A stretch of 64,000 nt of DNA from a virus (lineage: Duplodnaviria; Caudoviricetes): the IMG/VR virus record IMGVR_UViG_3300014205_000011, positions 1 to 64,000 of that record, one strand, 5' to 3'. The position numbers were made by a program, and so were the translations under genes. Shown piece by piece: positions 30,701 through 60,769 of this stretch; position 1 is the stretch's first letter; the number at the start of each line of letters is the position of its first letter. Below the pieces are notes generated by a model. That model was not told the DNA's origin. It saw only the letters and a list, made by a program, of their open reading frames with translations, and did not search any database.

Positions 30701-31307
30701 AGCTTTACAATTTAGAAAGTGGATGCATCCTGGATTTGAAGCTAGATTTAGAAGCCAATACTATGATGAAAGACTTAACCAATATGTAAAAGGTAGATAC
30801 CTTACTTATGTAGACTTTTTTAAAGCTATTAAAGAACTTAAAGGTGTAGTACTAGCTTGGAATAGTCTAGATGCACATGGTAAAGCTAATATGAGAAGGA
30901 ATATAATGGGTCTATTCTATACTGTTGGTACATTCCTGCTGCTTAGTTTGTTTAGAAGTATGGCAGATGATGATGATGAATTAGATAATAGTAAAGGATT
31001 TAATTTCTTTTTGTATCAAATAGATAGGTTCCAATCTGAAATGAAGTTTTACAATGTAGGTATACTTACTGGAGACTTAACTAAATTATTAAGGTCTCCA
31101 GCAGCAGCTATCACTACATTAGAAAATGTAGGTAGGATTTTTAAAGATGCTATAACTTATGATTTCTTGGATGAAGAAGAAAACCTAGTTAGAGGTGAAG
31201 ACTATACTAAGCTTAACAGAGACTTTGAAAAGCTTATACCTATTTTAAAAGAAGCTAAAAGATGGAAAAATGTAGAAGATCAAAGTCAATATTTTAAGAC
31301 TTTCTAG
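27750..31307 (+). CDS. Large ejected cargo protein with degenerate zincin-like motif
   Basis: 1185 aa; N-terminal MKCP...W..LV...GE motif; LPEEVSHFF...EEAVGK motif; last gene of the plus-strand block. Confidence 0.65.
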   Translation: MQMKCPVKNSDWIRLVEEVGELNAYKYFMLNNEETPTKEQVDKIIENRQPSIAKLLKYYNADTAGFLPKQVIVEKVKQDIKNKNLDVELKQASNGRYYLAKNGRKVTFYDLDGDSSKDEQLSQKLQDILTNIGIKIEAYDSLINRLGVDAAGAADIMNNIIYIANNKASETTLPEEVSHFFIRGLGLDNPLVKRLMDNIDQHPIYQQVLNDYTDLNYTQEELKEEAVGKLLGKYIVQEHKSTKGGVSIWEKFKGTMNLLLDKVYNLFKKITNQEMYATVEQVYGKFAKDILKGDIIVKDNNDGFFYQMSRTILSQQQMVEDKLKAIEARIKDYKAREGEYGGAKEKIEKFIKDTEKATNEIKELNEVNHEAAYLKLLELVNEAIKDTKERITTGELTELGLSRAINYMISYKNINLVDTTNEVIKKSANELEGQRLRLQTELEELAKVKLGKIALEETSSNRTVDKLLTPTSDLSWDQQNLGAMANADDSILAILDKKYKREVEDKVFEKMLIFDEKLAELLDKVNKEDLKLFIDTQDGVNRITSKWDASYYKAKKQFIESIDNLPHDIRILEWRKWFNENHTVRDANGKSHPKDRWISDKWKRIQVDPNIKALYDFVMSNKIFSDRLMGLEVYTNSEYRLPQFHKTLVEQIASQGKWEFLKGKTKKLLTSLEYTKDKNIYTDETDKPISFLKKPGTYKLEDPSTDIVNVLKAYVYSAEMYRAKRDIQGLVELTKTYVALRKVPVVNRKGAVLNQDGTPITMEGLSTRAYKRVEDWIEMIYFGNNQKDQGSFNIFGKQVDKQKVARALGKYNSVTALALNLFSATSNIIYGGVMQVMEAVGGEYYTGKDYAWATKTYATQALSPKLRELVKYFKVVQDTSEYGEKHNWISKLMFGGQTIGEDMLQVRMFLAMAHNYKVELNGEKINLWDAFEYDGKLKLKEGMELTNQDISDFRGKVRAVNQKLHGRYDTLDQAALQQYWWGYLALQFRKWMHPGFEARFRSQYYDERLNQYVKGRYLTYVDFFKAIKELKGVVLAWNSLDAHGKANMRRNIMGLFYTVGTFLLLSLFRSMADDDDELDNSKGFNFFLYQIDRFQSEMKFYNVGILTGDLTKLLRSPAAAITTLENVGRIFKDAITYDFLDEEENLVRGEDYTKLNRDFEKLIPILKEAKRWKNVEDQSQYFKTF

Positions 31308-31527
31308 TATAATTTAATTCTGGATGGTTATATTTAATATTAACCCCATATATTACATAATAGCTATTTATAATGTTATAAGGAACATTAGGTAATATAA
31401 TATCTGCTAACTTAGCCCCTACAAGCAATTTACTTATTACAAATGGTATATATAAATTATGTATTCTATGTGAAGTAGGTATTACCTGTCTTCTTTTTAG
31501 TTCATCATATAATTGCTGATTTGTCAT
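31294..31527 (-). CDS. Small LFxP-family protein
   Basis: ELKRRQVI ... NLYIP. Confidence 0.7.
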   Translation of the reverse strand: MTNQQLYDELKRRQVIPTSHRIHNLYIPFVISKLLVGAKLADIILPNVPYNIINSYYVIYGVNIKYNHPELNYTRKS

Positions 31528-31738
31528 ATTCTAAATTTGGTGGTACATTAGTAATATCTATGAACATTGTACCTGTAAGAAAAAGTTTAGATCCACGACT
31601 AACCCAATAGTCATTACTAAGTTGTGTATTTTTTAATGCTAAACATACTTTATTAGGTATAAACAAAGAATTTATAAAGACTGTATACTCTATAATACTT
31701 CTTTGTATTAGTGCATTATATAATTCTGTGTTTGTCAT
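31505..31738 (-). CDS. Small LFxP-family protein
   Basis: LIQRSII ... SLFIP. Confidence 0.7.
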   Translation of the reverse strand: MTNTELYNALIQRSIIEYTVFINSLFIPNKVCLALKNTQLSNDYWVSRGSKLFLTGTMFIDITNVPPNLEYDKSAII

Positions 31739-31941
31739 ATTGCTGGTTTAATACTTAAAAACATTCTTTTTTTTTTATAACCATAATAGACTGTTCCAGA
31801 AAAACATATTGCTGGATAATAAGGAACAGCTATCCCGTTTAAAGAAATAACAACAGCATTAGGCAAAAAAATATTTTTTAGTCTCCAACTAGAAGGAGAA
31901 GAAATAATATCTTTTGTTCTTAACTTTTCATATATTGTCAT
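31735..31941 (-). CDS. Small LFxP-family protein
   Basis: LRTKDII ... NIFLP; contains an A10 tract (31767-31776). Confidence 0.7.
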   Translation of the reverse strand: MTIYEKLRTKDIISSPSSWRLKNIFLPNAVVISLNGIAVPYYPAICFSGTVYYGYKKKRMFLSIKPAI

Positions 31942-32366
31942 AAGTCTATATCTATTCTGTAATGTGAATCAAAAGAAGTTATTGAAGCTATGTGTTTATA
32001 TTTATCAACTATTTCTAAAGGTATACAAGATATTTCACTTACCCCTAATTGTAACTTGTGTGTAGGATTGTTTGCTAAATGTATGTCAGTATACAACTTA
32101 GCTTTAGGAGAAGACATGTCTAATATTTCTTTCATGATGTTTTCAAAACTTGTACAACCTTTACTATACATAGACTCAAGTATAAATAAATTACTATCAG
32201 GTTTAGTACTATCTTTTTGAATTACATTACCTTTTTTATACCTGTTTTCATATTCTCTAAAATCTATACCGTCTTTAAGATTCTTCTCCCATTGATACTG
32301 AAATACATATGATGTCCTATTAAGTATCTGTAATACTTTTGTAATATTCTCTAAGTCTTTTTTCAT
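31938..32366 (-). CDS. Hypothetical protein (possible divergent LFxP member)
   Basis: ATGA-coupled ORF with NLFIL. Confidence 0.55.
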   Translation of the reverse strand: MKKDLENITKVLQILNRTSYVFQYQWEKNLKDGIDFREYENRYKKGNVIQKDSTKPDSNLFILESMYSKGCTSFENIMKEILDMSSPKAKLYTDIHLANNPTHKLQLGVSEISCIPLEIVDKYKHIASITSFDSHYRIDIDL

Positions 32367-32589
32367 GTATAATGAAATTATGATGTTCTAATCCTAAACT
32401 ATTAGGAGATATAAAAGGATAAACATTTTTTGATGGGTATAAAGTTTTAATGTGAATTTCTGCTAATTTTATTATAGTTGTAGGAAAAAATCCTTGTGGA
32501 TAACAGTTACTACCATCTTTATATATAAACACATACCCCATTTGTCTTTCTATAATGTTCCTTATTAATGTTATTTTATATTCTTCCAT
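32320..32589 (-). CDS. Hypothetical protein (possible divergent LFxP member)
   Basis: IIERQMG ... GFFP. Confidence 0.55.
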   Translation of the reverse strand: MEEYKITLIRNIIERQMGYVFIYKDGSNCYPQGFFPTTIIKLAEIHIKTLYPSKNVYPFISPNSLGLEHHNFIIHEKRLREYYKSITDT

Positions 32590-32786: not shown

Positions 32787-33016
32787 CCTCGTTTTGATTT
32801 TTTAGTATAAACATGTAATGTATCATAACCTTTAGTACACAATTCAACTCCATATGTATTTTCTTGAGGATATATCCATATTTTATTATATTCTTCAGGT
32901 CTTATTGATGCAGGCAAAAACAGTTCTGATATTCTAAACCAATTTTGATTCGTATACCAAAAGTTTACAATTGTTTTATTAATTAATACTTGTTTTATAT
33001 TGTTATTTTTATACAT
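32771..33016 (-). CDS. Small LFxP-family protein
   Basis: LINKTIV ... ELFLP. Confidence 0.65.
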   Translation of the reverse strand: MYKNNNIKQVLINKTIVNFWYTNQNWFRISELFLPASIRPEEYNKIWIYPQENTYGVELCTKGYDTLHVYTKKSKRGWKQL

Positions 33017-33231: not shown

Positions 33232-33243
33232 AGTTTATAAATT

Positions 33244-33275: not shown

Positions 33276-33296
33276 ACAAACACACAATTATCAACA

Positions 33297-33617
33297 CTAG
33301 TCTCTTACTGGCATGTTACTGCGTAACCAAGGATTATAAGCTTGTTGTATTGATTTAACAATAACAACATCTTTAGGTACTACATGAGTCCAATGCTCAT
33401 GATGAGTAACTACACCTTCTTCAGTAAGGCTGAATTTGTCAGGACTTACATCATCACCTCGGTAATCTTTAAGGTCATCTGCATAATCTATTACAGCACC
33501 TTTGGTTTGAAGCAAATGGTGGTGACCAGTTACTTCTCCATGTTGAAGGATAACACCTTCTGTGTAGCCTTTAATGGCTACTTCCGAATTCAATTGTTTT
33601 AAATCTACTCTTTCCAT
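33297..33617 (-). CDS. His-rich putative metal-binding small protein
   Basis: HGEVTGHHH ... HHEH ... QQAYNP ... VRD. Confidence 0.7.
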   Translation of the reverse strand: MERVDLKQLNSEVAIKGYTEGVILQHGEVTGHHHLLQTKGAVIDYADDLKDYRGDDVSPDKFSLTEEGVVTHHEHWTHVVPKDVVIVKSIQQAYNPWLRSNMPVRD

Positions 33618-33634
33618 TTTGTTTTTGTTTACTA

Positions 33635-35436: not shown

Positions 35437-35669
35437 ACTTTAACTATTAAATTATAAGGAAGAAATAAACTATATTCATATGTGTATAATTTATATACTT
35501 TATAATCAAGTCTAAAAATATTCCACGCTTTCCCATTTTTTAAATCATATGATTTAGCCTGAGTAACTAGATGATTTACTGTGTAAGGATAATCTTTATA
35601 CTCTTTATATCTGTCACTAAGTAACCTATCTATAATAGATTGATACAATTTTACATTTAAAGTTCCCAT
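35433..35669 (-). CDS. Small LFxP-family protein (C-terminal motif subtype)
   Basis: SLFLPYNLIV. Confidence 0.7.
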   Translation of the reverse strand: MGTLNVKLYQSIIDRLLSDRYKEYKDYPYTVNHLVTQAKSYDLKNGKAWNIFRLDYKVYKLYTYEYSLFLPYNLIVKV

Positions 35670-36277
35670 AACTTATATTGTTGAATAACTTCTCTATTAT
35701 CATGAATAAAATAAAACACCATTTTTCTATCTTCTATATTTTCTATAGGGGTATATAATGGGCCACTTCCAGGTTTAGTAATATATCTAATAGAATCATC
35801 TGGTATTTTACCTTCTGAAACTAATAAGTCATTAAACACTTTAGAATATATCACACCAAAGTTTTCAATGTCCCAATTATTTCTACCAGGTACTTGATAT
35901 ATCTCACATTCTATAATAATGGGCAAAGTTGTAATAATAGGTACTTGTTGAACATAAGGAAGTAAAAACTTTTTAAGTCCGTTTACTATATTCATTCTTA
36001 CAGAATAGTTACCTGCATAAATAAATTGGTTATTAATAGCTTGATACTTAGGTGTTCCTGCACTCTTAGCATTAGCTACTATTCTATTACCATTTTCATT
36101 TATGAGATACCCTTCTGTGTTGAATTTGTAGTTCTTGTATTTTTTAGGAATTTTAGTCTTTCTAAGCAATCCTGGGTATTTGCTGTAGAAGATTTCTCTC
36201 CTCTTCTGGCTGACTAATACCTTGGTTATGAACTGGGGTATTGTCAGAGTATAAAATGGCTCTTGATTCTGCTTCAC
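35657..36277 (-). CDS. rusA: RusA-like Holliday junction resolvase
   Basis: WDIEN..VIYSKVFNDLLVSEGKIPDDS matches the RusA DxDN..K...D.L...G...DD acidic pattern (with E for D). Confidence 0.65.
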   Translation of the reverse strand: MKQNQEPFYTLTIPQFITKVLVSQKRREIFYSKYPGLLRKTKIPKKYKNYKFNTEGYLINENGNRIVANAKSAGTPKYQAINNQFIYAGNYSVRMNIVNGLKKFLLPYVQQVPIITTLPIIIECEIYQVPGRNNWDIENFGVIYSKVFNDLLVSEGKIPDDSIRYITKPGSGPLYTPIENIEDRKMVFYFIHDNREVIQQYKLWEL

Positions 36278-36917
36278 TCATTCTCTTTCTCTTTTGGTTT
36301 ATAAATTCTTTTAATTCATTTGTAGATGCCTGTCTATCTTTAGTAAGCTTATGTTCACTTGTTTTAATTAATACACATTTAGGTTCTCTAATTTCTACAT
36401 CAAAGTAATTATTTTGAAAATCTTTAATTAATGTTTCAAAATAAGGAAATATTTTTATTGCGTTAGGATGAAATACAAATTTATACATGCGTATATCTAA
36501 ATTAGTTTGTATGTTACCATAACAATAGTTAATGTATTCTTCTACTTTATCTTCTTTTATTAACACAGTCATAAGCATACAATATTGGTCAAGTGTATAT
36601 CTATGTTGCATAAACCCCCATAAATAATTAACTCTTAATAAAAAATCATAAGGTGAGATATATTTAAACTCTCCATCAGATGTTTTAATTCTACTAGTAG
36701 ATTGATGGTTAGATAAATAAGGAATTACAAAATAATCTTTATTTATTCCTATTTGCATTTTACTTGATTCAATACTATTATGAATACTTAAAACATTTAC
36801 ATAACCTTCTTCTTCATTTTTAAATAATATTCCATTTTGAAAATTAATACATATATTAATAGAAGGGTAAACATATTTTTCAAAACTAACATCATGTTGT
36901 TTATTTACTAATATCAT
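36162..36917 (-). CDS. Hypothetical protein directly downstream of the E1-like gene
   Basis: 251-aa ORF overlapping both the E1 stop and the RusA start. Confidence 0.65.
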   Translation of the reverse strand: MILVNKQHDVSFEKYVYPSINICINFQNGILFKNEEEGYVNVLSIHNSIESSKMQIGINKDYFVIPYLSNHQSTSRIKTSDGEFKYISPYDFLLRVNYLWGFMQHRYTLDQYCMLMTVLIKEDKVEEYINYCYGNIQTNLDIRMYKFVFHPNAIKIFPYFETLIKDFQNNYFDVEIREPKCVLIKTSEHKLTKDRQASTNELKEFINQKRKRMSEAESRAILYSDNTPVHNQGISQPEEERNLLQQIPRIA

Positions 36918-37632
36918 AATACATGCTTATCATTTCAAGTTTAAGATTAGGTAAAGGGCAAATAGGTTTCTTATATACAAAATTAGTAAGGTAATTTGTA
37001 AATGAGTTAACCATATAGGCAGATATTAAGTAAGCATAATGAGTAGTTATCTTTAAAGTACAACTACCATCTACACCTTCAGAATCGTCAAATAGTGACT
37101 TTCTGTATTCATCAATTGTATCTTTGGTTACAATGAATATATCCATAGTCCCATATAATATTCTACCATCTATAAAAACACAAGGAGTACTACCATCATT
37201 AGTAATAGCTTCTTGTACCCATGATTCAAACATGTCTTTTCTAGCTTTCATAGAGTCAAAACATGAAAAACATATGGATTCTATTGGAGAATCTTCAGTA
37301 AATAATTCATTTTTAGCTGTTACATTATCTTCACCTGAAAAACTAGCACACAACTCTTTAATAGCATCTACTTTAGGCATACCTAAATGTTTCATGTGAT
37401 AGCCCTGTGCTCCTAAGTTAACAGTATCTACAGAATCATTATCCCATATAGTAAGTTGATGTCCATATCTAGATAATATCATAGCTATGTGTGATCCAGT
37501 TGCTCCAGCCCCTCCTATAGTTATAGGATAAAATTTACCAAACCAAGGCGCATCTTTATACCTGATATTTTTCTCTTCGTAATTAGGCTCCAACTTGATT
37601 TGGGAAGGCATCGTTATATTTGGTGAATTCAT
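36901..37632 (-). CDS. E1-like (ThiF/MoeB family) ubiquitin-like activating enzyme
   Basis: GGAGATGS nucleotide loop, DNDSVDTVNLGAQ, GMPKVDA, CFDSMKARK, IDGR; candidate catalytic Cys in GSCTLK (37060-37062). Confidence 0.9.
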   Translation of the reverse strand: MNSPNITMPSQIKLEPNYEEKNIRYKDAPWFGKFYPITIGGAGATGSHIAMILSRYGHQLTIWDNDSVDTVNLGAQGYHMKHLGMPKVDAIKELCASFSGEDNVTAKNELFTEDSPIESICFSCFDSMKARKDMFESWVQEAITNDGSTPCVFIDGRILYGTMDIFIVTKDTIDEYRKSLFDDSEGVDGSCTLKITTHYAYLISAYMVNSFTNYLTNFVYKKPICPLPNLKLEMISMYYDISK

Positions 37633-40219: not shown

Positions 40220-40468
40220 TTATATAGCACCTTTATGTTTATCTTCTACTAGGTATATCATGATACCATCACCATTAGGCAATACATCACTAGTTTTCAA
40301 TACCCATTTATCAGTACCTGTAGTCCATTGTGTACCCATTACAGCTTTAGTATTAGCATATTGAGGATATTTATCTAAAAATTCTCCCCATGTAGTTATA
40401 CTGTCATCAATTACACAATCTGTAGGAGCTCCACCAGCTCTACTATCTACCATCATTATTGTTCTCAT
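40220..40468 (-). CDS. Ubiquitin-like (beta-grasp) modifier precursor
   Basis: 82 aa; strand-strand-helix(TTWGEFL)-strand...strand(IMIYLV) pattern and extended basic tail KHKG-AI; first gene of the E2/JAB/E1 cluster. Confidence 0.7.
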   Translation of the reverse strand: MRTIMMVDSRAGGAPTDCVIDDSITTWGEFLDKYPQYANTKAVMGTQWTTGTDKWVLKTSDVLPNGDGIMIYLVEDKHKGAI

Positions 40469-41352
40469 ATCAATTCTTTTAATTTGTTTGTTGTTTGTTC
40501 TAATCCATAGTCTATCACCATATCCGTAAAGTCTTTGGTATATGGTGATACTATAGAGTTAATATTGTACTTATCAGTATAATGTACAGCTCCTTTCATT
40601 CCTGGCCCATCATTATCAAAATTCACATACATATCAAACCTGTTAAGTAAGTACCTAACAGTTTGTTCACGTATATGAATCATTTCACTAGCAGGAGCTA
40701 TAGAATTATAGCCAATTGATTTTAAAAACATCACATCTTTTAAGCTTTTAGTGATGATAAGCTTAGGATTAGTAAAATCTAATCCTTGTAATCCTTGTAT
40801 ATTACACCCTTTAGATAAAAACTTAGGTTTACAATAAGGGAGATATATTTTCCAACCTTTACTAAAAAAGTATATAAAAGCAAGATTGTCTTTATAGTCC
40901 CTAAATATTACATTATTTCCTTTATATATCAATCTAATAGGATATACATCATACATGTTAAGTATGTGTTTATTTATATTATATTTAGCCCAATAATCTA
41001 TATGCTTACTCTGCCACTCACTTATTTTATATTCTATATTATTATCACTCTCCTCATATATTGGGACTATAGTTTTGTTTACTATGGTAATATTAAGTTG
41101 CGAATATATTAAATCAACAGCTTGCCCATAATTTACTTTATAAAGCAATTTTACAAACTGCCATATATTACCATTCTCTCCACAACCAAAACATCTAAAT
41201 CTATTATTATCAACTAATAAACTAGGGGTTTTTTCTTTGTGAAAAGGACATAATACTTTTCCTTTAGAAGTACCTGCATATTTATTAAACAGCATAGCTT
41301 CTGTAACATTAGATAAAATTTTATCTCTTTTATTTCTAATGTCTATGATCAA
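40465..41352 (-). CDS. dnaG: DNA primase (CHC2 zinc finger plus TOPRIM)
   Basis: CPFHKEKTPS...CFGCGENG; ITKSLKDVM; FDNDGPG. Confidence 0.92.
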   Translation of the reverse strand: MIIDIRNKRDKILSNVTEAMLFNKYAGTSKGKVLCPFHKEKTPSLLVDNNRFRCFGCGENGNIWQFVKLLYKVNYGQAVDLIYSQLNITIVNKTIVPIYEESDNNIEYKISEWQSKHIDYWAKYNINKHILNMYDVYPIRLIYKGNNVIFRDYKDNLAFIYFFSKGWKIYLPYCKPKFLSKGCNIQGLQGLDFTNPKLIITKSLKDVMFLKSIGYNSIAPASEMIHIREQTVRYLLNRFDMYVNFDNDGPGMKGAVHYTDKYNINSIVSPYTKDFTDMVIDYGLEQTTNKLKELI

Positions 41353-41886: not shown

Positions 41887-42186
41887 TTAATTGCTACTCA
41901 CTGATTGATTAAGTTGTAAATCATCAGTATTTACTTCTGTATTTGTAGATTTTACAAATACTATTTCAGTTTTTTCATAAAACCTTTTAGGTGTAAGGTT
42001 AAGCGATTTACAAGCTACTTGTATATCTTTAGGCAACACTTTGTATTTATCAGCTAATGAAGCATACAAATCTTTTACTTTCATGTTACCACTTAGCTCC
42101 TCAAATGAAGCTTTAAACTCACTTTCATCTATTTCTACTTTATACGCCATTTTTATTTGTTTAAACTTGGAAATATTAATCCCCAA
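41887..42186 (-). CDS. Hypothetical protein
   Basis: ORF; internal ATG (MAYKVEID) is the likelier start. Confidence 0.55.
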   Translation of the reverse strand: MGINISKFKQIKMAYKVEIDESEFKASFEELSGNMKVKDLYASLADKYKVLPKDIQVACKSLNLTPKRFYEKTEIVFVKSTNTEVNTDDLQLNQSVSSN

Positions 42187-42934: not shown

Positions 42935-43169
42935 TTACTTTTCATCTTTCTTTTTTAAAATTATTCTTGTCCAATAATTATTATTTATCCATTCTTCTAT
43001 TAAATTTTCACTAAAAGCAATTCTTATATTAGATGTTGTCATATACATTGACACAAAATTACTGGATAATTTTTTAGGCAAAAATATATTATTCATTACA
43101 TAATCAGCATTTCCAAATGTTTTTTTAAAAACATTTTTTTATCAACTCTTCAATCTCAGGTCTTTCCAT
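42935..43169 (-). pseudogene. Frameshifted LFxP-family ORF (A7 tract)
   Basis: MERPEIEELIKK in one frame; NVFKKTFGNADYVMNNIFLPKKL...KKDEK* in the +1 frame. Removing one A from the A7 run at 43134-43140 joins them. Confidence 0.6.
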
Positions 43170-48927: not shown

Positions 48928-49151
48928 ATTATCATATATTTAACATGAAATTCAGGAAATGATTCACTTTCACCGATAAAATGATTTATACTTTGAAGGA
49001 TAAAAATATTTAAAGGAAGTGTGTTTTCATATGTTTGACAACTCTGTTTTTTACAATACCATATACCAGTAGTTGCAACTCCCCAATCTTCATCTAATAG
49101 TCTTCTGTTTATAAGAGTATCAACTCTTTCCATATTAGGTTTTATTTTCAT
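48924..49151 (-). CDS. Hypothetical protein (possible divergent LFxP member)
   Basis: LINRRLL ... NIFILQS. Confidence 0.55.
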   Translation of the reverse strand: MKIKPNMERVDTLINRRLLDEDWGVATTGIWYCKKQSCQTYENTLPLNIFILQSINHFIGESESFPEFHVKYMII

Positions 49152-50376
49152 AACTGCTTATTATATTACTCCAATTGTTAATACATTCTTCTATTGTATT
49201 ATTTTGTATAAAATATTCTCTAATAAAGGCGGGAGAATATTTGTATTCTTCTACTTTATTAATAAATTCATTTACTTTCTCATCAGTGTCATAAAATAAT
49301 TTATATAGCTTCTCCACTTGATGTTTAGAACAATACTTGTATTCTAACTTTACATCTATTCTACCAGGTCTAAATAATGCTTCATCTATTTTAGATATAT
49401 CATTAGTTGTAATAAATATTAAAACATTATGTCTAGCCAATATACCATCCATAGAACTAAGTATAGGCATTATAGAAAATTCATTTTTATCTGAGTCTAT
49501 ATACCTGTCTATATCTTCAAATAATATTATAGAGTTATCTTTTACTGTAGACAACAACTCGATAACTGTTGTATCTTTAAAACTACTATTAATACTTACA
49601 AAATAAACATTTCTTTTATATTTTGAGGCTATTGCATGAACAGTAGAAGTTTTACCTGTACCTGGCAATCCATATAGTAAATATCCCCTTTTATAAGGAA
49701 TACCATTAGTTATATACCAGTTTTCAGCTTTACTAAATTTATCTATATCTGCTATAATAATATCTAAGTTATTATCGGTAATAACTGTATCTATAGACTT
49801 GTGTTTAATAGTAAAGCTTTCTTCCCATCCAGAAGACCCTAAAGTATATACTTGAATTCCTGTTTCTTTTTTAGCATCTCTCATATTTTCTATGATACCA
49901 AGTATTTTATACTTCATATCTGTATTCCATATAAAATACCTTATAGTAACAGTCTCATATACTATAGTACTAAGTATTCCAGCATCAGTAGTACTAGGTT
50001 CATTTCTATTACTCCCTATAAACAATGTTTTACCATTTACTTTACACAAATAAATATTAGAAGAAGGAAAAAGAGTGCTTTTATATTCGTAACTTTTTTT
50101 CTCATGATTATAAGTTTCTATAGTAAATAATTGAAATTTCTTTTCTAGTGATTTTAGTTCAAGAGTACTAATCCATTCTTTAGTATACTTATATAGATTA
50201 TCTGTAATATCTATTTTTATAGTAACAAATAGTTTATTCCAGATAAATCCCAACATTATGCCAGGAACTTTTTTAAGACTATTCAATAATCCTAATATTG
50301 TACCTCCTATTACAGCACCTGAAAAGAATTGATTAGTGTCTATTTGAGATTGAATGTATGTATATATTTCTTTCAT
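49135..50376 (-). CDS. BCS1-like membrane-anchored AAA+ ATPase
   Basis: N-terminal TM (FFSGAVIGGTILGLL); W-Y...GIPYKRGYLLYGLPGTGKT, LFEDID, ITTN...D.AL.RPGRID. Confidence 0.85.
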   Translation of the reverse strand: MKEIYTYIQSQIDTNQFFSGAVIGGTILGLLNSLKKVPGIMLGFIWNKLFVTIKIDITDNLYKYTKEWISTLELKSLEKKFQLFTIETYNHEKKSYEYKSTLFPSSNIYLCKVNGKTLFIGSNRNEPSTTDAGILSTIVYETVTIRYFIWNTDMKYKILGIIENMRDAKKETGIQVYTLGSSGWEESFTIKHKSIDTVITDNNLDIIIADIDKFSKAENWYITNGIPYKRGYLLYGLPGTGKTSTVHAIASKYKRNVYFVSINSSFKDTTVIELLSTVKDNSIILFEDIDRYIDSDKNEFSIMPILSSMDGILARHNVLIFITTNDISKIDEALFRPGRIDVKLEYKYCSKHQVEKLYKLFYDTDEKVNEFINKVEEYKYSPAFIREYFIQNNTIEECINNWSNIISSYENKT

Positions 50377-50378: not shown

Positions 50379-50895
50379 TTAAAACATAGTTGTTTGTTTT
50401 GGTTTAATAATATCTATAATCTTGTAACATTCTTTAATGTAAAAGCTCATATCAATATCGTAATCTTTTATAGGCTTTTCTATATATGTATTAAATATAG
50501 TTACTTTAAAACCTTTATTAATAAGTTCAGTAGTTCCTTTACTATATTTTTTAACAAATACACAACCTCTGTTACTTATGTAATACCTTACATTCTTCTG
50601 TTGTTTAGTTATCTTAGTATAAGGATTGTTAGTATAATCATACTCTATTTCATGTGTTTCTCCTTGTGAGTCACCTTTAAACTTTTGTCTACCACAAAAA
50701 TCGTATATGTTTTGATGATTATGAATAGTTTGTTCTATTGGCACATTATTTATAAAGTACTCTGATAGAGCTATTTTAACTATGTTAAATGAAAAATCCT
50801 TATGCCACTCTTCATCTTTTCTAAGTTGTTCATTAGGTTTAAAACAACCTTTATATTTTATACTACCGTCTATTTTTAAGGACATGTAATTGTTA
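50379..50895 (-). CDS. polB: DNA polymerase family B, exon 2
   Basis: Resumes ...V-NNYMSLKIDGSIKYKGCF after the intron; spliced ORF is 1923 nt (640 aa plus stop). Confidence 0.9.
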
Positions 50896-50901
50896 CATGT
50901 G

Positions 50902-51600
50902 TTACTCAAATTTCTCTGAGGATCGGACTATATCTTTAATTATTACTCTTTTCACAAAAAATTCTTTAAATCTTACAAGATCCATTTTATACTTAGCAAA
51001 TTTATGTTGTACCCCATGTATGTTAATTTCTTTTAAATACTTATAATTACAATAAGATACAAACACTCCGTCTAGAGTATACAAGTTATACATATATTTA
51101 GTTTTATATAATGTAAACCATTCTGATTGCTTAAGTCTTCTTTCAGGACTAGCTCTTTTCCAAGCTTCTGAAAGTTTTTCACCATGTTGATCCCTTACTC
51201 CATTTTTCCATTCTTTTTTAAGTCTTTCTGAGATCTTTTTAGAAGTGTCTGAATGAACAATCATATTGCTGTCTGAATCTTGCCTTAAGTTATATCCATG
51301 TTCTCTGTTAGTAGATTTATATAGTTTCATCCAAAACATTTCTTGTTTCTTCATTTTAGCTTCATCTTGCCAAGAGATATACTCTAAAATAAAATATTCA
51401 AAATTGTTTTCTCCATACTTGTTCCAAGCAGCTTGTATATAACTGTTTTCATGTTTTTTATTACCAATTCTTAAAGAAGATACATGCCCATGAATTCTAT
51501 TCCAGATGTTTTTGGATTTACCTATATAAACCTTACCGTTTACTATATTTCTAATACAGTAAATCCCTGATATATTTTTGTGTTTTATGTTTACTATCAT
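50902..51600 (-). CDS. Intron-encoded GIY-YIG homing endonuclease
   Basis: SGIYCIRNIVNGKVYIGKS...R...H...E...GYN; lies between intron elements R and S. Confidence 0.93.
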   Translation of the reverse strand: MIVNIKHKNISGIYCIRNIVNGKVYIGKSKNIWNRIHGHVSSLRIGNKKHENSYIQAAWNKYGENNFEYFILEYISWQDEAKMKKQEMFWMKLYKSTNREHGYNLRQDSDSNMIVHSDTSKKISERLKKEWKNGVRDQHGEKLSEAWKRASPERRLKQSEWFTLYKTKYMYNLYTLDGVFVSYCNYKYLKEINIHGVQHKFAKYKMDLVRFKEFFVKRVIIKDIVRSSEKFE

Positions 51601-51605
51601 TACTA

Positions 51606-51613
51606 CAAATATA
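51606..51613 (-). promoter_or_regulatory. Intron-internal -7 box (TATATTTG) for the endonuclease
   Basis: TAnnTTTG ending 5 nt before ATG 51600. Confidence 0.55.
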
Positions 51614-51825
51614 GTAATATAGTTATTAACTAAACATAAAAAAGTTAATAATTACCTGGCACTTCCACTTATTTAAGTGTACTCTACTTTCTTCCACCTT
51701 TAATAAAGATGTGATTTCGATAGTCTCTGAACCTTCCCTATAAACTACAGGGCTTGGATGCTGATTGCCATATCAATTAAGACTTAGGTTTCCAGCAGTT
51801 CACCAGGTTAAGACGCTAACAAATA

Positions 51826-53231
51826 ACGTCTCTTATGATCATCTTAGAGTACTCTGCATATTCTAGTTGTAATTGAGTTTTAGTTTCCCATTCTTTACAT
51901 ATCCTAAAACAATTGTCTAAATCTACCTTTTTAATTTTAAGTGTTACACCATCAGTATTTGATTGTAATAAAGTTAAATTTATTTCAAGTAGTTTCTCTA
52001 TCAACATAGTCATCAATAATTCTCCATTAACGGTTGTAGTAATAGTATATTTACTATCATACAAAAAGCTATTAGCACTATTAGACTTGCCATATATACT
52101 ATTGAGACTCAATTTCAAAGCATTAGAGATAACCATATCCTTTCTCTTCTTAGCTTCTAATCTTTGATTAAGTATATCTTCATATATTTCATAAAATTCT
52201 TCACCAAGATGTTCTGGATATAGTTTATTTTTAACAGCTATAGAAGGATATAGGCTACCTACATCAATATCTAATATGACATGTTCATCATCAGCTTCAT
52301 ATATACCAGGTGTATGTGATTGATGAATGCCTCCAGTACCATAATAGAATACATATCCTTTATAAATAACTTTTTCATCTACAGATTTTTTAGTATCTAC
52401 TATAACTATATTTTTAATTTTTTCTAACAAGTTAATAAATACAGGTGTAGTAAAGTTTATGTAATTAAACACACATTCACTCATTTTTATTTCATGTCTG
52501 TGGGTTCTCCATTCTTTTACATCATATGGATTTAAGTCTAATTTACTACAATACAAGTTTAATGCTAATTGTTCACCTATTTTAGTATCACTATAATTAG
52601 TACAAGGTAATTTATATTTAGCTTTTATTTCTTTTCTTAACTGAATTTTGTCTAAAGACAATTTGTAAAACTGCAAAGTGGAATATACATCCCAATAATT
52701 ATATTCTAAAATGACATCAACCTCTTCTAAAGTAATATTAGCTTTACTATGATGTATAGGCATATCTACTACTTTTGGTAAATCCATAGCTATTTCTAAT
52801 TGTTTTAAATTACAAGATCTAGCAGGATTATTAAAATGATGTATTTTAAACAAATCTAATTGAGGTATTTTTACTTCTTTAGCTTTTATAGCTGTACCAA
52901 ATACACTTTGATCATCTATAAGTTGTTGAGCTTTTTTATACAATAATCTACATATTTCTTCAGATGTAAAATCATCCCATCCAGATGTAAGTCCATCTTG
53001 AAATATAGTATTATCTAAAAAATAATGTATTACAGGATAATCAAACGCAAGATTATTATACCCTATTTGACCTTTACAATTGTTTAAATGATTAAGCAAT
53101 TCAACTATATTATCCCTATCTTTATGTATTACATATTGAACTATTTCTTCAGTGTCTATGTTTATAGCTGTATATGTAAAACAACTTTTAAGTGTTTCAA
53201 TATCATATACCCATACTCTTCTGTCATTCAT
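51826..53231 (-). CDS. polB: DNA polymerase family B, exon 1 (3'-5' exonuclease plus motifs A-C)
   Basis: YDIET, GYNNLAFD, YNYWDV; DIDVGSLYPS, KLSLNSIYGK, QSNTDG. Confidence 0.93.
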
Positions 53232-53468: not shown

Positions 53469-53723
53469 TTACCAATTTATCATTGCTTTTCTATTCAACT
53501 TAAGATAACAGACATTATCATGTTTATGATACGTTGATGGATAAACTTTGTATTCATAAAATGAAAGTATAGTTTTAGGTATAAACATATTAGAACTTAA
53601 ACGTTCAATCAAATGCTTCTTACAATGTTCAGCTTTTTCTGAATCAAAATATACACTTTTGTTCCCAAAATCAAATATAGTATCTAATTTATCCCATACT
53701 TCTTCTTGTTTATATATGTCCAT
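53469..53723 (-). CDS. Small LFxP-family protein
   Basis: NMFIPKTIL. Confidence 0.65.
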   Translation of the reverse strand: MDIYKQEEVWDKLDTIFDFGNKSVYFDSEKAEHCKKHLIERLSSNMFIPKTILSFYEYKVYPSTYHKHDNVCYLKLNRKAMINW

Positions 53724-53901
53724 ATTTTCTATCTATTAATGGCTTAACTCTTATTCTTATATAACTATTTACGGGAGTCCAATAATGATGTTGAATTTCA
53801 AATATAGTATGCGGTAAAAATAGATTATAAGATGTATCTAGTATTCCCGATAAAGATTTATATATTTGTCTATTATTTACTAAATGTTTATGTAATCTCA
53901 T
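53710..53901 (-). CDS. Small LFxP-family protein
   Basis: Start reassigned to ATG 53901 (outside the tRNA); LVNNRQIY ... NLFLPHT. Confidence 0.65.
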   Translation of the reverse strand: MRLHKHLVNNRQIYKSLSGILDTSYNLFLPHTIFEIQHHYWTPVNSYIRIRVKPLIDRKYGHI

Positions 53902-53915
53902 ATATTTTAAATTAG

Positions 53916-53991
53916 TAAACCTGGGGGGAATCAAACCCTAATCCTCTTGATTTTTAGAAGAAATCCGTGCTGTTCATTACACTACAGGTTC
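53916..53991 (-). tRNA. trnR: tRNA-Arg(TCT), atypical T arm (possible pseudo-tRNA)
   Basis: Acceptor GAACCTG/CAGGTTT, D stem GTGT/GCAC, anticodon arm GATTT-CTTCTAA-AAATC. T loop is TTTGATT and the T stem has 2 mismatches. Confidence 0.65.
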
Positions 53992-55627: not shown

Positions 55628-56893
55628 TTAAGCTTGTTGTTGTGACTCTTGTGATTCTGTATCTGCTTCACCTTTATCTAATTGTGCTGTTTCCATATGA
55701 AGAAAACTTGAATTTTTAGCTTTAGTAACATAAGGTATTATACCATCTTTTCTAATACAAATACCTTCTTCAGGTGAACCTTTATCTACAGGTAAACAAT
55801 CAGGGTTAATCTCTGATAATATCTTTTCTTTATATAACTCTATATCAAAGCCTTTATGTTTACCTTGCCATAGTTCAGGTACATATTTTAAAGCATTAGT
55901 ATTGCAAAACTCTTTTACCTGTTCCCAACTTAAATCACAAGCTATACCATGATTATTAACTATAGCTATCCTGTATATGTACAACTCTGAATTACCTTGA
56001 CTATATCCATAAGAGTAACCTCCTTGAATAGCTTTATCACCTGCATATCCCACTATTTCACCATATAGAATATAGTCCTCTGGTATTACATGCTTAATCA
56101 GTTCAAGATGTTGAGCCCATACATCAGTTTCATAAAAACTGGGTTTACCCACAGTATCTTTAATTACTCTTCTACTACCACATACATAATCATATTCATG
56201 AGTTTGTACTTTTACTCCTAACCACTTAAGTATTCTTTCTATAATAGTTAATTGCCTTTTAAACAATACTTTACCAAATCTAGCTGATGTACCATGTATC
56301 TTTTGAGTAATTATTACAGTATCATCATTTTGATATTTGTTTACATTTTTATGATAGTTATCAGTTTCAAAGTGTTGTGGAAACACTTTACTTTCTACTA
56401 ATGATTCAGTAATATTTCTAGCTTTTTGCTCACCTTTTTCCCTAGGTACTTTGATTACATACTTTTTACATATTTCTATTCCTTCAATTTCATTAAAGCT
56501 ATCACCTTCTTTAAATAAAGAATTAATATTTTCAGGAGAAGCAGCAAATATATACATAAGTGAGCTTAATGGCATAAATAAAGCAGAAGAAGTATGACCT
56601 CTAAATTTTACAGCTTTTACTCTTCTGTTATCTTCTATGTAACCTTTTTGAGTTGTATCAATGTTTAGGTTACTGTGTCTGAACAGATTATTCTGTTTGC
56701 AATACTCTTCTGATAGCTGTACTTCAGCAGTAAACAATATGCCTAAGTCACCTATTTGAGTATCTTTGCTTACTATAGCTTGATAACCATATATAGGAAA
56801 TCCTACTACATTATCACAATTATCAAGTTTAACTATATTGTGTACTTTAACTATAGTAGCACAATAATTTTCATTTGTTACTTTTAAATTCAT
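55628..56893 (-). CDS. RNA ligase (Rnl2/DRB0094-like)
   Basis: TQKIHGTS (motif I Lys), YGEIVG, LYIYRI, EGICIR, KAKN; N-terminal OB-like domain. Confidence 0.85.
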   Translation of the reverse strand: MNLKVTNENYCATIVKVHNIVKLDNCDNVVGFPIYGYQAIVSKDTQIGDLGILFTAEVQLSEEYCKQNNLFRHSNLNIDTTQKGYIEDNRRVKAVKFRGHTSSALFMPLSSLMYIFAASPENINSLFKEGDSFNEIEGIEICKKYVIKVPREKGEQKARNITESLVESKVFPQHFETDNYHKNVNKYQNDDTVIITQKIHGTSARFGKVLFKRQLTIIERILKWLGVKVQTHEYDYVCGSRRVIKDTVGKPSFYETDVWAQHLELIKHVIPEDYILYGEIVGYAGDKAIQGGYSYGYSQGNSELYIYRIAIVNNHGIACDLSWEQVKEFCNTNALKYVPELWQGKHKGFDIELYKEKILSEINPDCLPVDKGSPEEGICIRKDGIIPYVTKAKNSSFLHMETAQLDKGEADTESQESQQQA

Positions 56894-57406: not shown

Positions 57407-57588
57407 GTTTTTAAATTAGGTTTTATATGTATTCCTAAAACGTTTGTAGTTATGTAATACTTAGGTATAAATAAAGAACAAGGATAAAATAATTGTGGTT
57501 TATCAAAGATAAAAGATATATAACTACCATCAGGTAATTCATCTTTTATCATAGCTCTTTGTACAAAACTGTTCATTAATTTATTCAT
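57400..57588 (-). CDS. Small LFxP-family protein
   Basis: FVQRAMI ... SLFIPK. Confidence 0.65.
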   Translation of the reverse strand: MNKLMNSFVQRAMIKDELPDGSYISFIFDKPQLFYPCSLFIPKYYITTNVLGIHIKPNLKTC

Positions 57589-57856
57589 TGTTTTTTATAT
57601 TAGTTTGCGATTCAAGTTCCAGTAACTTTTGTAATACTACATTATAATGACTATGTTTTTTAGGTCTAAACCCTAATACAATAATCTTAAATTTGTTTCT
57701 ACTATTAGAATAATAAATATGATAAAAACAATTTTTAACTTCTGGAGCTTGTTTTCCTTCGTAATATATAGTTCCATAGAAAGTTGACCAACTATTATAT
57801 GTACTATATATTAATTTCCAATCATTAGGCAAAAACAATTTTGTTATCCAATTCAT
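57581..57856 (-). CDS. Hypothetical protein
   Basis: 91-aa aromatic-rich ORF. Confidence 0.55.
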   Translation of the reverse strand: MNWITKLFLPNDWKLIYSTYNSWSTFYGTIYYEGKQAPEVKNCFYHIYYSNSRNKFKIIVLGFRPKKHSHYNVVLQKLLELESQTNIKNNE

Positions 57857-58193: not shown

Positions 58194-58227
58194 TTGCTGA
58201 ATAATGTCATTCTTAAAGAGAGACTTA

Positions 58228-58568: not shown

Positions 58569-58569
58569 G

Positions 58570-58782
58570 TTATTTTATTGTAAGATCTAAAATTTGTGTA
58601 CTAAGAATTTTAAATTCGCTTTTAGTATTGGGTATAAAAAGATTTATTGTGTTTTGATAACAATAGTGTAAACGTACATCTATAAATTTACTTTTAAAAT
58701 AAATAGCTAATTCAGGTGTAAGATAAGAAGGATTATAACTAGTACGATATATCATCCTATTTATTATATCAAATTTTTCCAT
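58570..58782 (-). CDS. Small LFxP-family protein
   Basis: IINRMIY ... NLFIPNT. Confidence 0.65.
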   Translation of the reverse strand: MEKFDIINRMIYRTSYNPSYLTPELAIYFKSKFIDVRLHYCYQNTINLFIPNTKSEFKILSTQILDLTIK

Positions 58783-59315
58783 ATCAATACTTTTTTTACA
58801 GCTTTACACAAGTCTAATAGAGTTCCACTATTTACAATAATTACATCACAAAGTAAATTTAATTGCTCACCTTCATTTTTAACTATACCTATTATAAAAT
58901 GTTCTTCTTGTTTAATTCTGTCTAACTCTACTGGAAACCTTAAATCATCTATTATCCAATTATCATCTTTGGTGTAATTATCAAATAAAGCTTTAACCCA
59001 TACATCATTGCCAAATATGTTTTTACATTGCTCACAGAACTCTATAAACCTGGGTCTTTCCTTTTCTTTATCTCTTCTAGATAAATCATGATAATCTAGT
59101 CCAGTTATATCAAAATATATATTTGCTGGAGGCTCACTAAACTTAACAATATCCCAAGAAAAAATAGAATTTGCCTTTTTCTCAGTTAGCCAGTTTACTA
59201 CTATTTCTTCATCATATTCTTCTTCCCATTCTTTTTGATACAAAAACCAATGTATTATTTGTGCTACAGTTGACTTACCAACTGAGTTATTGTTTGCTGT
59301 TATTGCTATGATCAT
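58764..59315 (-). CDS. Deoxynucleoside monophosphate kinase
   Basis: P-loop NNNSVGKST; WVKAL; WIIDDLRFPVE. Confidence 0.75.
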   Translation of the reverse strand: MIIAITANNNSVGKSTVAQIIHWFLYQKEWEEEYDEEIVVNWLTEKKANSIFSWDIVKFSEPPANIYFDITGLDYHDLSRRDKEKERPRFIEFCEQCKNIFGNDVWVKALFDNYTKDDNWIIDDLRFPVELDRIKQEEHFIIGIVKNEGEQLNLLCDVIIVNSGTLLDLCKAVKKVLIWKNLI

Positions 59316-59461: not shown

Positions 59462-59730
59462 AAAATTTTTATTTTAAGTTCTAAACTTCTACTATTTTTA
59501 TCAGTAGAATAATAAATATTAACTGTATCTTTAAAATAAAATATTGAACTAGGTAAAAACAAATTTGATCTGTTTAAAGTAAGTATATTATTAATAGTAA
59601 CTTTATAATTATATATACTGTTAGGATTTATATCTAATTCATTATAAGTTTCTTTCAGAAAACTTTTTCGAGTTTTATATTGATATAATATTTTTCTTGT
59701 TTCAAAAATTTTTTCAATGTCTTTATTCAT
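59458..59730 (-). CDS. Small LFxP-family protein
   Basis: FETRKILY ... NLFLPSSIF. Confidence 0.7.
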   Translation of the reverse strand: MNKDIEKIFETRKILYQYKTRKSFLKETYNELDINPNSIYNYKVTINNILTLNRSNLFLPSSIFYFKDTVNIYYSTDKNSRSLELKIKIL

Positions 59731-60032
59731 AACTTTCTTAAGTTAATACATTCTTTTTTTAACAATTTTAAGTATTCTATTTTATCTGTACAACTAAGAG
59801 AAAAGTCTCTCATAAGATCATCTAAAGATCCATATTCAAAATAATCATTATCAGGATCATATAATAAAGAAGCTATTTCATAACATACAAGATCCATATA
59901 ATAACTATAAAAATCACCACTATAATTACCTACCATCTTCATAGCAGGTTTACCTATAGAAATAAACTTAGCGCATAAATAACATTTATGCATTTTCTTA
60001 GTTTTAACTTTTTTTTCTATATGAAAATTCAT
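59727..60032 (-). CDS. Hypothetical protein with CxxC
   Basis: HKCYLCAK ... C. Confidence 0.55.
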   Translation of the reverse strand: MNFHIEKKVKTKKMHKCYLCAKFISIGKPAMKMVGNYSGDFYSYYMDLVCYEIASLLYDPDNDYFEYGSLDDLMRDFSLSCTDKIEYLKLLKKECINLRKL

Positions 60033-60340
60033 ATCTTATAATATTGTTCTTTAGGTTTGCCATTATTAAACCAGTTAAACATACCCCAATGAGTAGCTTT
60101 AATGTTACCATTTATAGCAATAGGTATTATTTTACCACCTTGTTTAAGAGTACCAAGTATATTAGATAATTGATTTTTATCTAACATTACACCATCTTCT
60201 TTAAGTTGTAACATAATTTTTTTAGCATTACAGAAGTAACCTATTTTCTCTATAGTTTGCCATACTATTTGTTTATTAGTATTAGGCTCTACATTCTTAT
60301 TTAATTTTACTCTACGTTCTGTTTCCATAATATTTATCAT
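60029..60340 (-). CDS. Putative winged-helix DNA-binding protein
   Basis: Helix-helix-helix then LKQGGKII beta hairpin. Confidence 0.45.
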   Translation of the reverse strand: MINIMETERRVKLNKNVEPNTNKQIVWQTIEKIGYFCNAKKIMLQLKEDGVMLDKNQLSNILGTLKQGGKIIPIAINGNIKATHWGMFNWFNNGKPKEQYYKI

Positions 60341-60536
60341 AATTATTGTATGAGCATGTCATCCAAGACAAATGTATTTCAATTCTTAATGCTGATGTTG
60401 GAATAAATAAATTTTGATTAAAATTTATTGTTTGTTTTGTAAAAAATTGCTTATAATGTTCAAGAGATGCTTCTTTACTTAAAGCTAACCAATTCATTAA
60501 GCTTTTACTTATATTTTTATCGTATAATTGACTCAT
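60312..60536 (-). CDS. Small LFxP-family protein
   Basis: NLFIPTSAL. Confidence 0.65.
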   Translation of the reverse strand: MSQLYDKNISKSLMNWLALSKEASLEHYKQFFTKQTINFNQNLFIPTSALRIEIHLSWMTCSYNNYDKYYGNRT

Positions 60537-60769
60537 TTAAACATTTTTCTTTTTACGGCTATAGTAGTCCATTCATAACCTTCAGAATCTTTACCTGTTT
60601 CATAAAACTCAAATATACTACTAGGTAATAATAAATTTAAGCAACATTGATTTATAACAAAATCAGATTTGTAAACAGCCCATTCCCTTGTATGAATTTC
60701 TCTAAAGGCTAATATTTTTTCAAAATCTTTCATAAGTTGTTTAATAAAAATACTACCCTGGTTATCCAA
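60533..60769 (-). CDS. Small LFxP-family protein
   Basis: LAFREI ... NLLLPSSIF. Confidence 0.65.
   Translation of the reverse strand: MDNQGSIFIKQLMKDFEKILAFREIHTREWAVYKSDFVINQCCLNLLLPSSIFEFYETGKDSEGYEWTTIAVKRKMFK

Follow-up and report, generated by a model that had tools for sequence, protein, structure and literature searches.

The ankyrin/PRANC F-box-like proteins of poxviruses and the multigene families (MGF) of African swine fever virus (ASFV) are tandem-duplicated paralogues in which a constant docking module is combined with a variable binding part and which play a role in interaction with the host. In bacteriophages, arrays of orphan small genes are already known: anti-CRISPR and other anti-defence arrays are small, clustered, homologue-poor and subject to fast turnover, and the blocks of short ORFan genes of crAss-like phages have been suspected, but never shown, to target host defences (Yutin et al. 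2021, PMC7886860). The subject of the present work is a family of small proteins encoded in the window, that is, the first 64,000 bases of an 88,245-bp viral record (IMG/VR record IMGVR_UViG_3300014205_000011) which is complete, carries direct terminal repeats (DTR) and has a G+C content of ~28-30%. It can be regarded as settled that this family is real, coding, restricted to one clade, tandemly amplified and rapidly turning over, with a two-block sequence signature separated by a hypervariable linker.

Small phage orphan genes are hard to study, each of them being unique, and a signature shared by a whole set therefore provides a comparative handle on what is constant (the two blocks), what is variable (the linker and the tail) and at what pace the set turns over.

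Definition and architecture of the family

An earlier note on this DNA, made from the sequence alone, had claimed about 26 dispersed paralogues sharing a short Leu/Phe/Pro motif. The open reading frames (ORFs) and motifs quoted there were all found where the note had placed them, all on the minus strand, and the motif proved to be far more frequent than in composition-shuffled controls: of the 49 small (<=110 aa) minus-strand ORFs, 17 match the strict pattern [NSA][LI][FY][LI]P, as against a mean of 0.10 and a maximum of 2 in 2000 shuffles, and 26 match the core pattern [LIM][FY][LIVFM]P, as against 1.0 expected. The larger proteins, 16,717 aa in total, contain 2 strict matches, both on the structural strand and judged to be due to chance, and each plus-strand frame of the region contains 0-1.

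An iterative hidden Markov model (HMM), seeded with the motif-bearing ORFs of the phage of the window (G000) and of two relatives (L005 and L006), converged at 57 members, distributed as 28, 13 and 16, respectively. All of them reached at least 9 bits (those of G000 at least 9.5) and non-members remained below 6.4 bits; over all iterations the best reversed control scored 7.6 bits and the best shuffled control 11.8 bits (9.3 when the model had converged), and the two lowest G000 members (35433 at 11.1 and 57581 at 9.5 bits) overlap the control range. The iteration also added variants in which the Pro is replaced (NLFIS, NLFIT and NLFIL). The family of the earlier note was thus upheld, but its count was not, the HMM giving 28 members plus 2 borderline ORFs; similarly, its minus-strand arrays between core genes were recovered, although as contiguous arrays of 1-4 genes rather than 1-6.

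The profile contains two informative blocks, the remainder being uninformative. The N-terminal block (N-block) reads h-h-x-E-L-x-x-R-x-I-h-x3-Y, with R/K conserved in 92% and I/L/V in 87% at the respective profile positions, so the N-terminal L-x-x-R-x-hydrophobic element proposed before is real; it is found in 81% of the ORFs positive for the core motif and in 38% of the negative ones. The C-terminal block (C-block) reads N-L-F-(L/I)-P-x-(S/T)-(L/I)-(V/I/F), with emissions at its position 1 of 0.71 for N, 0.10 for S, 0.07 for E and 0.05 for A, of 0.81 for P at position 5, and with K, S or N at position 6. Architecture statistics were obtained for 70 members (28 in G000 and at least 42 in three relatives), the proteins being ~50-105 aa long: the Arg stands at median residue 14, the linker from this Arg to the Phe spans 10-54 aa (median 26), and a tail of at least 19 residues follows the motif in all but three members, which end 8-11 residues after it. 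A weaker third feature, present in a subset, is a C-terminal W-x-x-(I/L/V/M), found in 11 of the 70 members as against 4.0 +/- 1.9 expected.

In G000, the 28 members form 13 arrays between 31294 and 60769, with a total of 6.3 kb, which represents 7% of the genome and 21% of the 31.3-60.8 kb region. The arrays sit between the genes for primase, helicases, AAA_24, PolB, RNA ligase and others; when the complete 88,245-bp genome was scanned, both the far-early block at 61-72.7 kb and the structural strand proved to be free of members. Adjoining family genes often overlap by ~20 nt in different frames (31505-31527, 32995-33016, 46828-46847 and 47003-47022) and not by the usual 1-4, which suggests either tight translational coupling or a by-product of their origin as duplicates.

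Conservation acts on the protein and not on the DNA, since synonymous codons vary at the conserved positions: the Leu at motif position 2 is encoded by all six codons, the Pro by all four and the Asn by both, and the same synonymous spread is seen at each conserved position of the N-block. Moreover, the DNA repeats found in the 31-61 kb region do not exceed 30-43 nt, with an identity of 70-80%, and the small genes are tightly packed and co-directional. A DNA-level signal, promoter or repeat was ruled out by codon diversity, frame specificity and the lack of repeats, and a programmed frameshift joining neighbouring ORFs by the fact that each ORF has its own ATG, with the N-block at a short, constant distance behind it.

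Relatives and evolution

Four related phages were found via their helicase: L005 (69% identical helicase; 87.6-kb contig), L006 (64%; 85-kb contig), L007 (54%; 92-kb contig, 36% G+C) and L009, which is close to L005 and shares 85-97% identity with it in the core proteins. G000 and all four relatives are collinear in their core genes, and the same inter-core slots, for example the gap between the DnaB-like helicase and AAA_24 genes and both sides of the SF2 helicase gene, are filled in G000, L005, L006 and L009. No clear one-to-one family orthologues exist among G000, L005 and L006, although their helicases are 64-69% identical, and the best cross-genome family matches reach ~30% identity over part of the length. 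Within a genome the adjacent gene is often the best match, therefore pointing to tandem duplication followed by rapid divergence.

The closer pair L005/L009 allows the pace of change to be measured. The identity of family orthologues ranges from 39 to 89%. Four members of L009 lack a counterpart in L005, and these same four, which were outside the HMM training, scored 15-24 bits. Nei-Gojobori dN/dS values (ratios of non-synonymous to synonymous change) range from 0.34 to 1.10 in the family (median 0.6; ten pairs, one of them borderline) and from 0.08 to 0.37 in the core (median 0.18; eleven genes), and the family evolves ~3 times faster than the core genes at non-synonymous sites. Identity within orthologue pairs falls from 83% in the C-block and 76% in the N-block to 71% in the tail and 58% in the linker. 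In one pair, L009:4387-4587 and L005:8114-8314, the DNA flanks are ~97% identical and the central 60 nt, corresponding to the linker, ~50%, with no indel; to judge from the alignment, this is a cassette-type replacement. It is not the work of a diversity-generating retroelement (DGR), because the complete genome gave no match to the reverse transcriptase profile RVT_1, with positive controls that worked; no repeat longer than 43 nt exists in 31-61 kb either, and a DGR was ruled out. The lineage-specific expansion with constant segments and a divergent remainder that had been supposed is borne out by a family confined to one clade, with tandem duplicates, a dN/dS of 0.6 and a hypervariable linker.

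Database and literature searches

An exhaustive profile search of 1.84 billion representative proteins gave 17 significant matches, all of them in G000, L005, L006 and L009, and a word-seeded search of 5.8 billion proteins returned only the phage's own proteins and a near-identical contig. For the family, searches of PHROGs, NCBIfam, PADLOC and PDB sequences yielded at most isolated matches due to chance, a Pfam scan of the 28 members at E<=0.1 four single-member chance matches (DUF3173, DnaA_N, DUF4462 and AvrM-A), and the ESM Atlas no usable match. Furthermore, no close phage relatives appeared in a DNA search of INPHARED, a peptide-seeded scan of viral contigs with the helicase found none, and the family is absent from two distant fecal-phage records (31-32% helicase identity). 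Literature searches on the motif strings and on phage multigene families found nothing relevant; among the publications covered, none describes a 28-copy family with a defined signature and cassette-like variation of the linker that takes up 7% of the genome of a medium-sized phage, and the family is considered new.

Predicted structure

Two members were modelled by AlphaFold2 (AF2) with the family as alignment, the 78-aa product of 60533-60769 and a 47-aa minimal member, the latter small enough for structural and peptide-binding work. The 78-aa model (mean predicted local distance difference test, pLDDT, 72.5; predicted template modelling score, pTM, 0.39) has a helix at residues 4-25, a poorly defined middle, an extended motif and a confident beta-hairpin at residues 53-72 (pLDDT ~90). 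The 47-aa model (pLDDT 67.8, pTM 0.36) has a helix at residues 2-11 and is then mostly coil. In both, the N-terminal helix stops at the Arg, the motif is extended and beta structure follows the motif; the local elements thus agree in the two models, but a confident compact fold was not obtained. Fold searches with the 78-aa model gave a best E-value of 0.25 with Foldseek against BFVD and a best Z of 2.1 in a PDB-wide VIA search, with no known DNA-binding fold recovered in either, and the homodimer co-fold of the 60533-60769 product scored 0.01, a value that carries no weight on dimer formation in either direction.

Possible function of the family

The reading favoured here, which as a deduction from sequence is given about an even chance, is that of a minimal scaffold with variable binding surfaces, serving as a repertoire of host-directed binders. 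The constant module would be made up of two pieces, an N-terminal amphipathic helix ending in E-L-x-x-R-x-I-h and an extended N-L-F-(L/I)-P segment leading into a beta-strand or hairpin, and these would pack together as a minimal folding core, while the hypervariable linker and the variable tail would be the surfaces giving each paralogue its own target. The proteins, expressed from the early/replication strand, would act in host takeover or counter-defence; their genes have multiplied by successive tandem duplications in the spaces that separate the core replication genes, and their diversity would be kept by duplication, loss, fast amino-acid change and cassette-like linker exchange. We infer that the constant blocks are the core of a fold and do not serve for docking; where the linker is shortest (10-12 aa), the end of the helix and the NLF segment could lie side by side. 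A host-directed (anti-defence or takeover) function seems plausible and matches the suspicion on crAss-like short-gene blocks expressed in PMC7886860. If the family does act on the host, it would offer a panel for counter-defence or takeover mechanisms in phages of Bacteroidota-type hosts, for which very few are known, and would represent an unusual multigene-family strategy in a medium-sized phage.

Several observations weigh against this scaffold. The low pTM of both AF2 models means that the folding core is not demonstrated, and the three short-tailed members, together with two whose motif lies at the extreme N-terminus, fit a portable linear motif better than a fixed fold. In addition, a docking peptide would be just as likely to have conserved hydrophobic residues, and the regular architecture and the hydrophobic nature of the conserved positions favour neither scaffold nor docking decisively.

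Shared docking is the main rival, unlikely in itself but placed above nucleic-acid binding, ubiquitin-like protein (Ubl) adaptors and artefact. It proposes that the helix and NLF(L/I)P form a bipartite linear motif binding one hub, of the phage or of the host (for example in replication, transcription or proteolysis), with the variable part bringing different cargo or blocking different clients. The position of the motif varies from residue 3 to residue 68, and a few members consist of hardly more than the motif and a single flank; phages whose other proteins have drifted to 30-70% identity still have the motif unchanged, and in the AF2 models it is extended and non-regular, within no confident tertiary fold. 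On the other hand, no large phage replication protein carries the motif, and most members keep a regular helix-linker-motif-hairpin layout.

The binding peptides of the bacterial beta-clamp follow QL[SD]LF or QLxLxL, with a near-invariant Gln; the hexapeptide QLSLPL of E. coli Hda is superficially similar to NLF(L/I)P. Like these peptides, the motif is short, Leu/Phe-rich and headed by a polar amide residue, has Pro at position 5 (as in Hda) and occurs in a neighbourhood of replication genes; unlike them, it has Asn for Gln at position 1, no hydrophobic residue at position 5 or 6, the latter being variable, and is usually internal. The clamp-binding consensus is therefore unmatched by the profile (N 0.71 at position 1, P 0.81 at position 5, K/S/N at position 6).

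Rather improbable is the possibility that the members are small nucleic-acid-binding proteins, either middle/late transcription regulators or DNA/RNA-coating factors, diversified by site. Their median pI of 9.1 (61% are above pI 8), the ~15% of aromatic residues, the Lys/Arg-rich tails and the location of the genes inside the replication/recombination module are in line with this role. Nevertheless, 19% of the members are acidic, no helix-turn-helix (HTH), ribbon-helix-helix (RHH), AbrB or zinc-ribbon profile matched, the fold searches recovered no DNA-binding fold, and 28 regulators are far above the plausible need of an 88-kb phage. As regards an RHH/AbrB strand-Pro-helix module, this was discarded, with no CopG, Arc or SpoVT_AbrB match, an AF2 hairpin, not a helix, after the Pro, and only 8-11 residues left after the motif in three members.

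Just as doubtful is a phage adaptor repertoire in which a constant anchor (the helix and the NLF(L/I)P strand) would dock on a hub and hypervariable, cassette-exchanged linkers would select host targets; the hub may be the phage Ubl/E2 machinery, the BCS1-like AAA ATPase or a host component. If true, bacteriophages would have their own version of the F-box/PRANC principle seen in eukaryotic viruses, and the NGF(L/I)C array of L007 (see below) would be a sister form that has co-evolved.

Clearly less probable than these, on what the sequences offer, is that the members are Ubl adaptors proper, the motif docking on the Ubl-E2-JAB-E1 machinery and the variable part selecting conjugation substrates. 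The family shares its strand and its module with the operon, four members stand just downstream of the operon and RusA, and 4/4 family-carrying phages also have at least the first operon genes (L005 and L006 have at least the Ubl and E2-like genes, and L009, whose sequence ends there, the beginning of the Ubl gene). Besides, the operon of L007 is directly followed by a small-gene array of another kind. However, this same phage, with the whole Ubl-E2-JAB-E1 operon, contains no NLF(L/I)P member in 36.5 kb of early strand (top HMM score 8.2 bits, no small ORF with the core motif); the Pfam scan of the 28 members gave no F-box or PRANC match, nor was any other adaptor profile matched; the E2-like protein is only 27-31% identical among phages in which the motif is unchanged; and the majority of the arrays lie apart from the operon, at distances of 3-20 kb and interspersed with replication genes. 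Co-occurrence cannot discriminate, because every relative found has operon genes: all five phages carry at least the first of them, L007 without the family. The F-box-like adaptor idea of the earlier note thus found no support.

The array of L007 (L010:11566-14947) comprises seven small ORFs with an N-terminal (E/Q)-L-...-I-(I/L) helix followed by N-G-F-(L/I/V)-(C/H)-x-K-L, and is syntenic with the 31.3-35.7 kb slot of G000 (ten members), downstream of the Ubl operon. It resembles the family in its N-terminal helix, its later N-x-F-(L/I)-x motif and its syntenic slot, but differs in having Cys/His for Pro and Gly for Leu. It may be a sister family, the homology being unproven: hhalign gave the link a probability of 0.2%, and there were no reciprocal HMM matches above controls.

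Finally, it is scarcely credible that no protein family exists and that the motif is an in-frame dispersed DNA signal or repeat, or the product of chance ORFs in AT-rich spacer: a genome of 28% G+C makes T-rich codons such as TTA, TTT and ATA common, but the six Leu and four Pro codons used, the constant presence of the motif in the ORF frame (with 0-1 strict matches per plus-strand frame), the lack of longer repeats, the tight co-directional packing and a dN/dS below 1 in 9/10 orthologue pairs all argue against it.

Genome context and list of features

Structural genes, among them ORFs of 3,499, 1,345 and 1,185 aa, lie on the plus strand (73-88 kb and 1-31.3 kb), and the early and replication genes on the minus strand (72.7 to 31.3 kb). 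A giant virion RNA polymerase (vRNAP) is found not only in crAss-like but also in N4-like phages. The present phage looks crAss-like because of its giant virion protein, a weak match of its helicase to phage cr127_1 and PolA/PolB switching among its relatives, the assignment being based on genome features and this weak match; the 88-kb DTR genome, the 28% G+C and the 3,499-aa protein of the virion module are consistent with it. Recurrent in-situ switching between PolA and PolB is reported for crAss-like phages in PMC7886860.

A split family-A polymerase (L009:997-3721 and L006:6191-8651) occupies the place where G000 (50379-53231), L005 (5563-7521) and L007 have PolB, the swap between L009 and L005 having occurred despite 85-97% identity of the flanking core genes. 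The PolB of the window (50896-51825, minus) is split into ORFs of 176 and 471 aa around the GIY-YIG nuclease gene; that of L005 is uninterrupted (652 aa) and 51% identical to the 471-aa part. Unusually for a phage, G000 encodes a BCS1-like AAA ATPase (49135-50376). Its L005 counterpart shows 63% identity to it and 97% conservation with that of L009, and none was seen in the L006 or L007 loci. A protein of 102-106 aa with the sequence HGE(V/M)TGHHHLL, not a family member, is kept in the middle of small-gene arrays in both G000 (33297-33617, minus) and the L007 phage (L010:13093-13401). At L006:129-2457 and L011:8204-8887 there are short genes resembling aminoacyl-tRNA synthetases (fragments of class Ib, class IIc and His type); a radical-SAM gene is present in L006 as well, and genes for NAMPT and phosphoribosyltransferase were seen in the L007 phage. 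Across the clade, the accessory gene content is very fluid. A search of sequencing runs found DNA of the phage in one run, a landfill metagenome that is probably the source sample, and listed no RNA run, and a scan for sigma-70 promoters gave a count equal to the shuffle expectation.

Family members and neighbouring genes are collected in Table 1. The least secure members are 42935-43096 and 57581-57856, in both of which the motif lies within residues 3-11 and the N-block is missing. The former sits in the DnaB-like/AAA_24 slot, which has members in L005, L006 and L009 too, and the latter, unlike other members, has a 34%-identical counterpart in L005 (3666-3965). Member 53710-53934 probably starts at Met12, because the longer form overlaps tRNA-Arg, and the gene call P0001 of the exhaustive search starts there; for 60533-60769, the Atlas entry begins at residue 13.

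Table 1. Members of the small-protein family and other annotated features of the minus strand, with HMM scores
Feature	Coordinates	Strand	Signature or basis	HMM score (bits)	Remarks
Member, 77 aa	31294-31527	minus	ELKRRQVI ... NLYIP	31.6	In profile; best match adjacent 31505
Member, 77 aa	31505-31738	minus	ALIQRSII ... SLFIP	34.6	Tandem partner of 31294
Member, 68 aa	31735-31941	minus	KLRTKDII ... NIFLP	28.3	
Borderline, uncounted, 89 aa	32320-32589	minus	LIRNIIERQMGYVF ... QGFFPTTIIKL	2.6	Variant motif by eye
Member, 71 aa	32571-32786	minus	NLNNRKLL ... NLFFP, end TWKNIK	43.6	C-terminal W-x-x-I
Member, 81 aa	32771-33016	minus	VLINKTIV ... ELFLP	45.0	31.5% over 73 aa to adjacent 32995
Member, 78 aa	32995-33231	minus	ILKNKNIL ... 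NLFIP	36.0	
Member, 73 aa	34788-35009	minus	ELYKRTRS ... EMFLPFTLAKL	24.1	Long linker, short tail
Weak member, 69 aa	35006-35215	minus	ALFFPYHLAKSL near C-terminus	14.4	Best match 35433
Member, 74 aa	35212-35436	minus	NIFLPYSLFKSI	29.5	
Weak member, 78 aa	35433-35669	minus	SIIDRLLS ... SLFLPYNLIVKV C-terminal	11.1	Tail 9 aa; shuffled-control range
RusA	35657-36277	minus	Pfam/PHROGs		
ThiF-type E1	36901-37632	minus	Pfam/PHROGs		ThiF match confirmed
Primase zinc ribbon	40465-41352	minus	Pfam/PHROGs		
AAA_24	42153-42932	minus	Pfam/PHROGs		
Doubtful member, 53 aa	42935-43096	minus	MNNIFLP (motif residues 3-7)	15.6	No N-block
Member, 89 aa	43142-43411	minus	AITREIIS ... EMFVPNSLI	50.2	Top score
DnaB-like helicase	43408-44376	minus	Pfam/PHROGs		
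Member, 60 aa	46665-46847	minus	HYRNILKH ... NLFMP	26.5	
Member, 64 aa	46828-47022	minus	ELGKRKVF ... NLYVP	31.0	
Member, 70 aa	47003-47215	minus	DLKSRGIA ... NLFIP	26.1	
SF2 helicase	47164-48297	minus	Pfam/PHROGs		
Member, 74 aa	48294-48518	minus	LWQNRGII ... ALFLPSS	35.2	
Member, 62 aa	48503-48691	minus	QFIKRQIL ... SLFLPHSLF	29.7	P0035 in exhaustive search
Borderline, uncounted, 79 aa	48688-48927	minus	ELVDRQMA ... NKILIPSGII	4.5	Loose motif only
Member without Pro, 75 aa	48924-49151	minus	TLINRRLL ... LNIFILQS	24.7	From iteration, not regex
BCS1-like AAA ATPase	49135-50376	minus	Pfam/PHROGs		BCS1_N, AAA and BCS1 lid domains
GIY-YIG nuclease	50902-51600	minus	Pfam/PHROGs		
Member, 84 aa	53469-53723	minus	NMFIPKTILSFYEY	43.7	
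Member, probably 63 aa	53710-53934	minus	LVNNRQIY ... NLFLPHTIF	42.4	Probable start Met12
tRNA-Arg(TCT)	53915-53991	minus			Amid small-gene arrays
RNA ligase	55628-56893	minus	Pfam/PHROGs		
Member, 105 aa	57089-57406	minus	ELYKRDIM ... NLFLPSSII	49.7	
Member, 62 aa	57400-57588	minus	SFVQRAMI ... SLFIP	22.4	
Doubtful member, 91 aa	57581-57856	minus	KLFLPNDW at residues 7-14	9.5	Borderline; shuffled-control range
Member, 52 aa	58077-58235	minus	MMSKNLLS ... NLYLPIKLIKQ C-terminal	23.5	Tail 8 aa
Member, 70 aa	58570-58782	minus	IINRMIYR ... NLFIP	25.0	
dNMP-kinase-like protein	58764-59315	minus	Pfam/PHROGs		
Member, 90 aa	59458-59730	minus	IFETRKIL ... NLFLPSSIF	25.2	
Member, 74 aa	60312-60536	minus	NLFIPTSAL	30.4	
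Member, 78 aa (probably 66 aa from Met13)	60533-60769	minus	ILAFREIH ... NLLLPSSIFEFYE	42.2	From iteration
tRNA-Trp(CCA)	60846-60918	minus			Amid small-gene arrays

Comparison with known systems

The family shares with those of poxviruses and ASFV the expansion of paralogues by tandem duplication and the combination of a constant element with variable surfaces; unlike them, its members are 5-10 times smaller, show no sequence or fold relation to them and contain a constant part whose docking role is unproven. As in anti-defence arrays, the genes are small and clustered, change quickly from one close relative to the next and have no homologues; however, anti-defence loci usually consist of unrelated proteins, whereas here dozens of paralogues carry a common motif, with no match in PADLOC or Pfam. 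Finally, the arrays resemble the ORFan blocks of crAss-like phages in being made up of co-directional short genes, situated in the replication/early module, without homologues outside close relatives. The blocks described in the relevant sections of PMC7886860 are composed of unrelated short genes, no family of this kind being mentioned in those sections, whereas in the present phage the majority of the short genes fall into a single recognisable family of 28 copies, with a two-block signature and a hypervariable linker.

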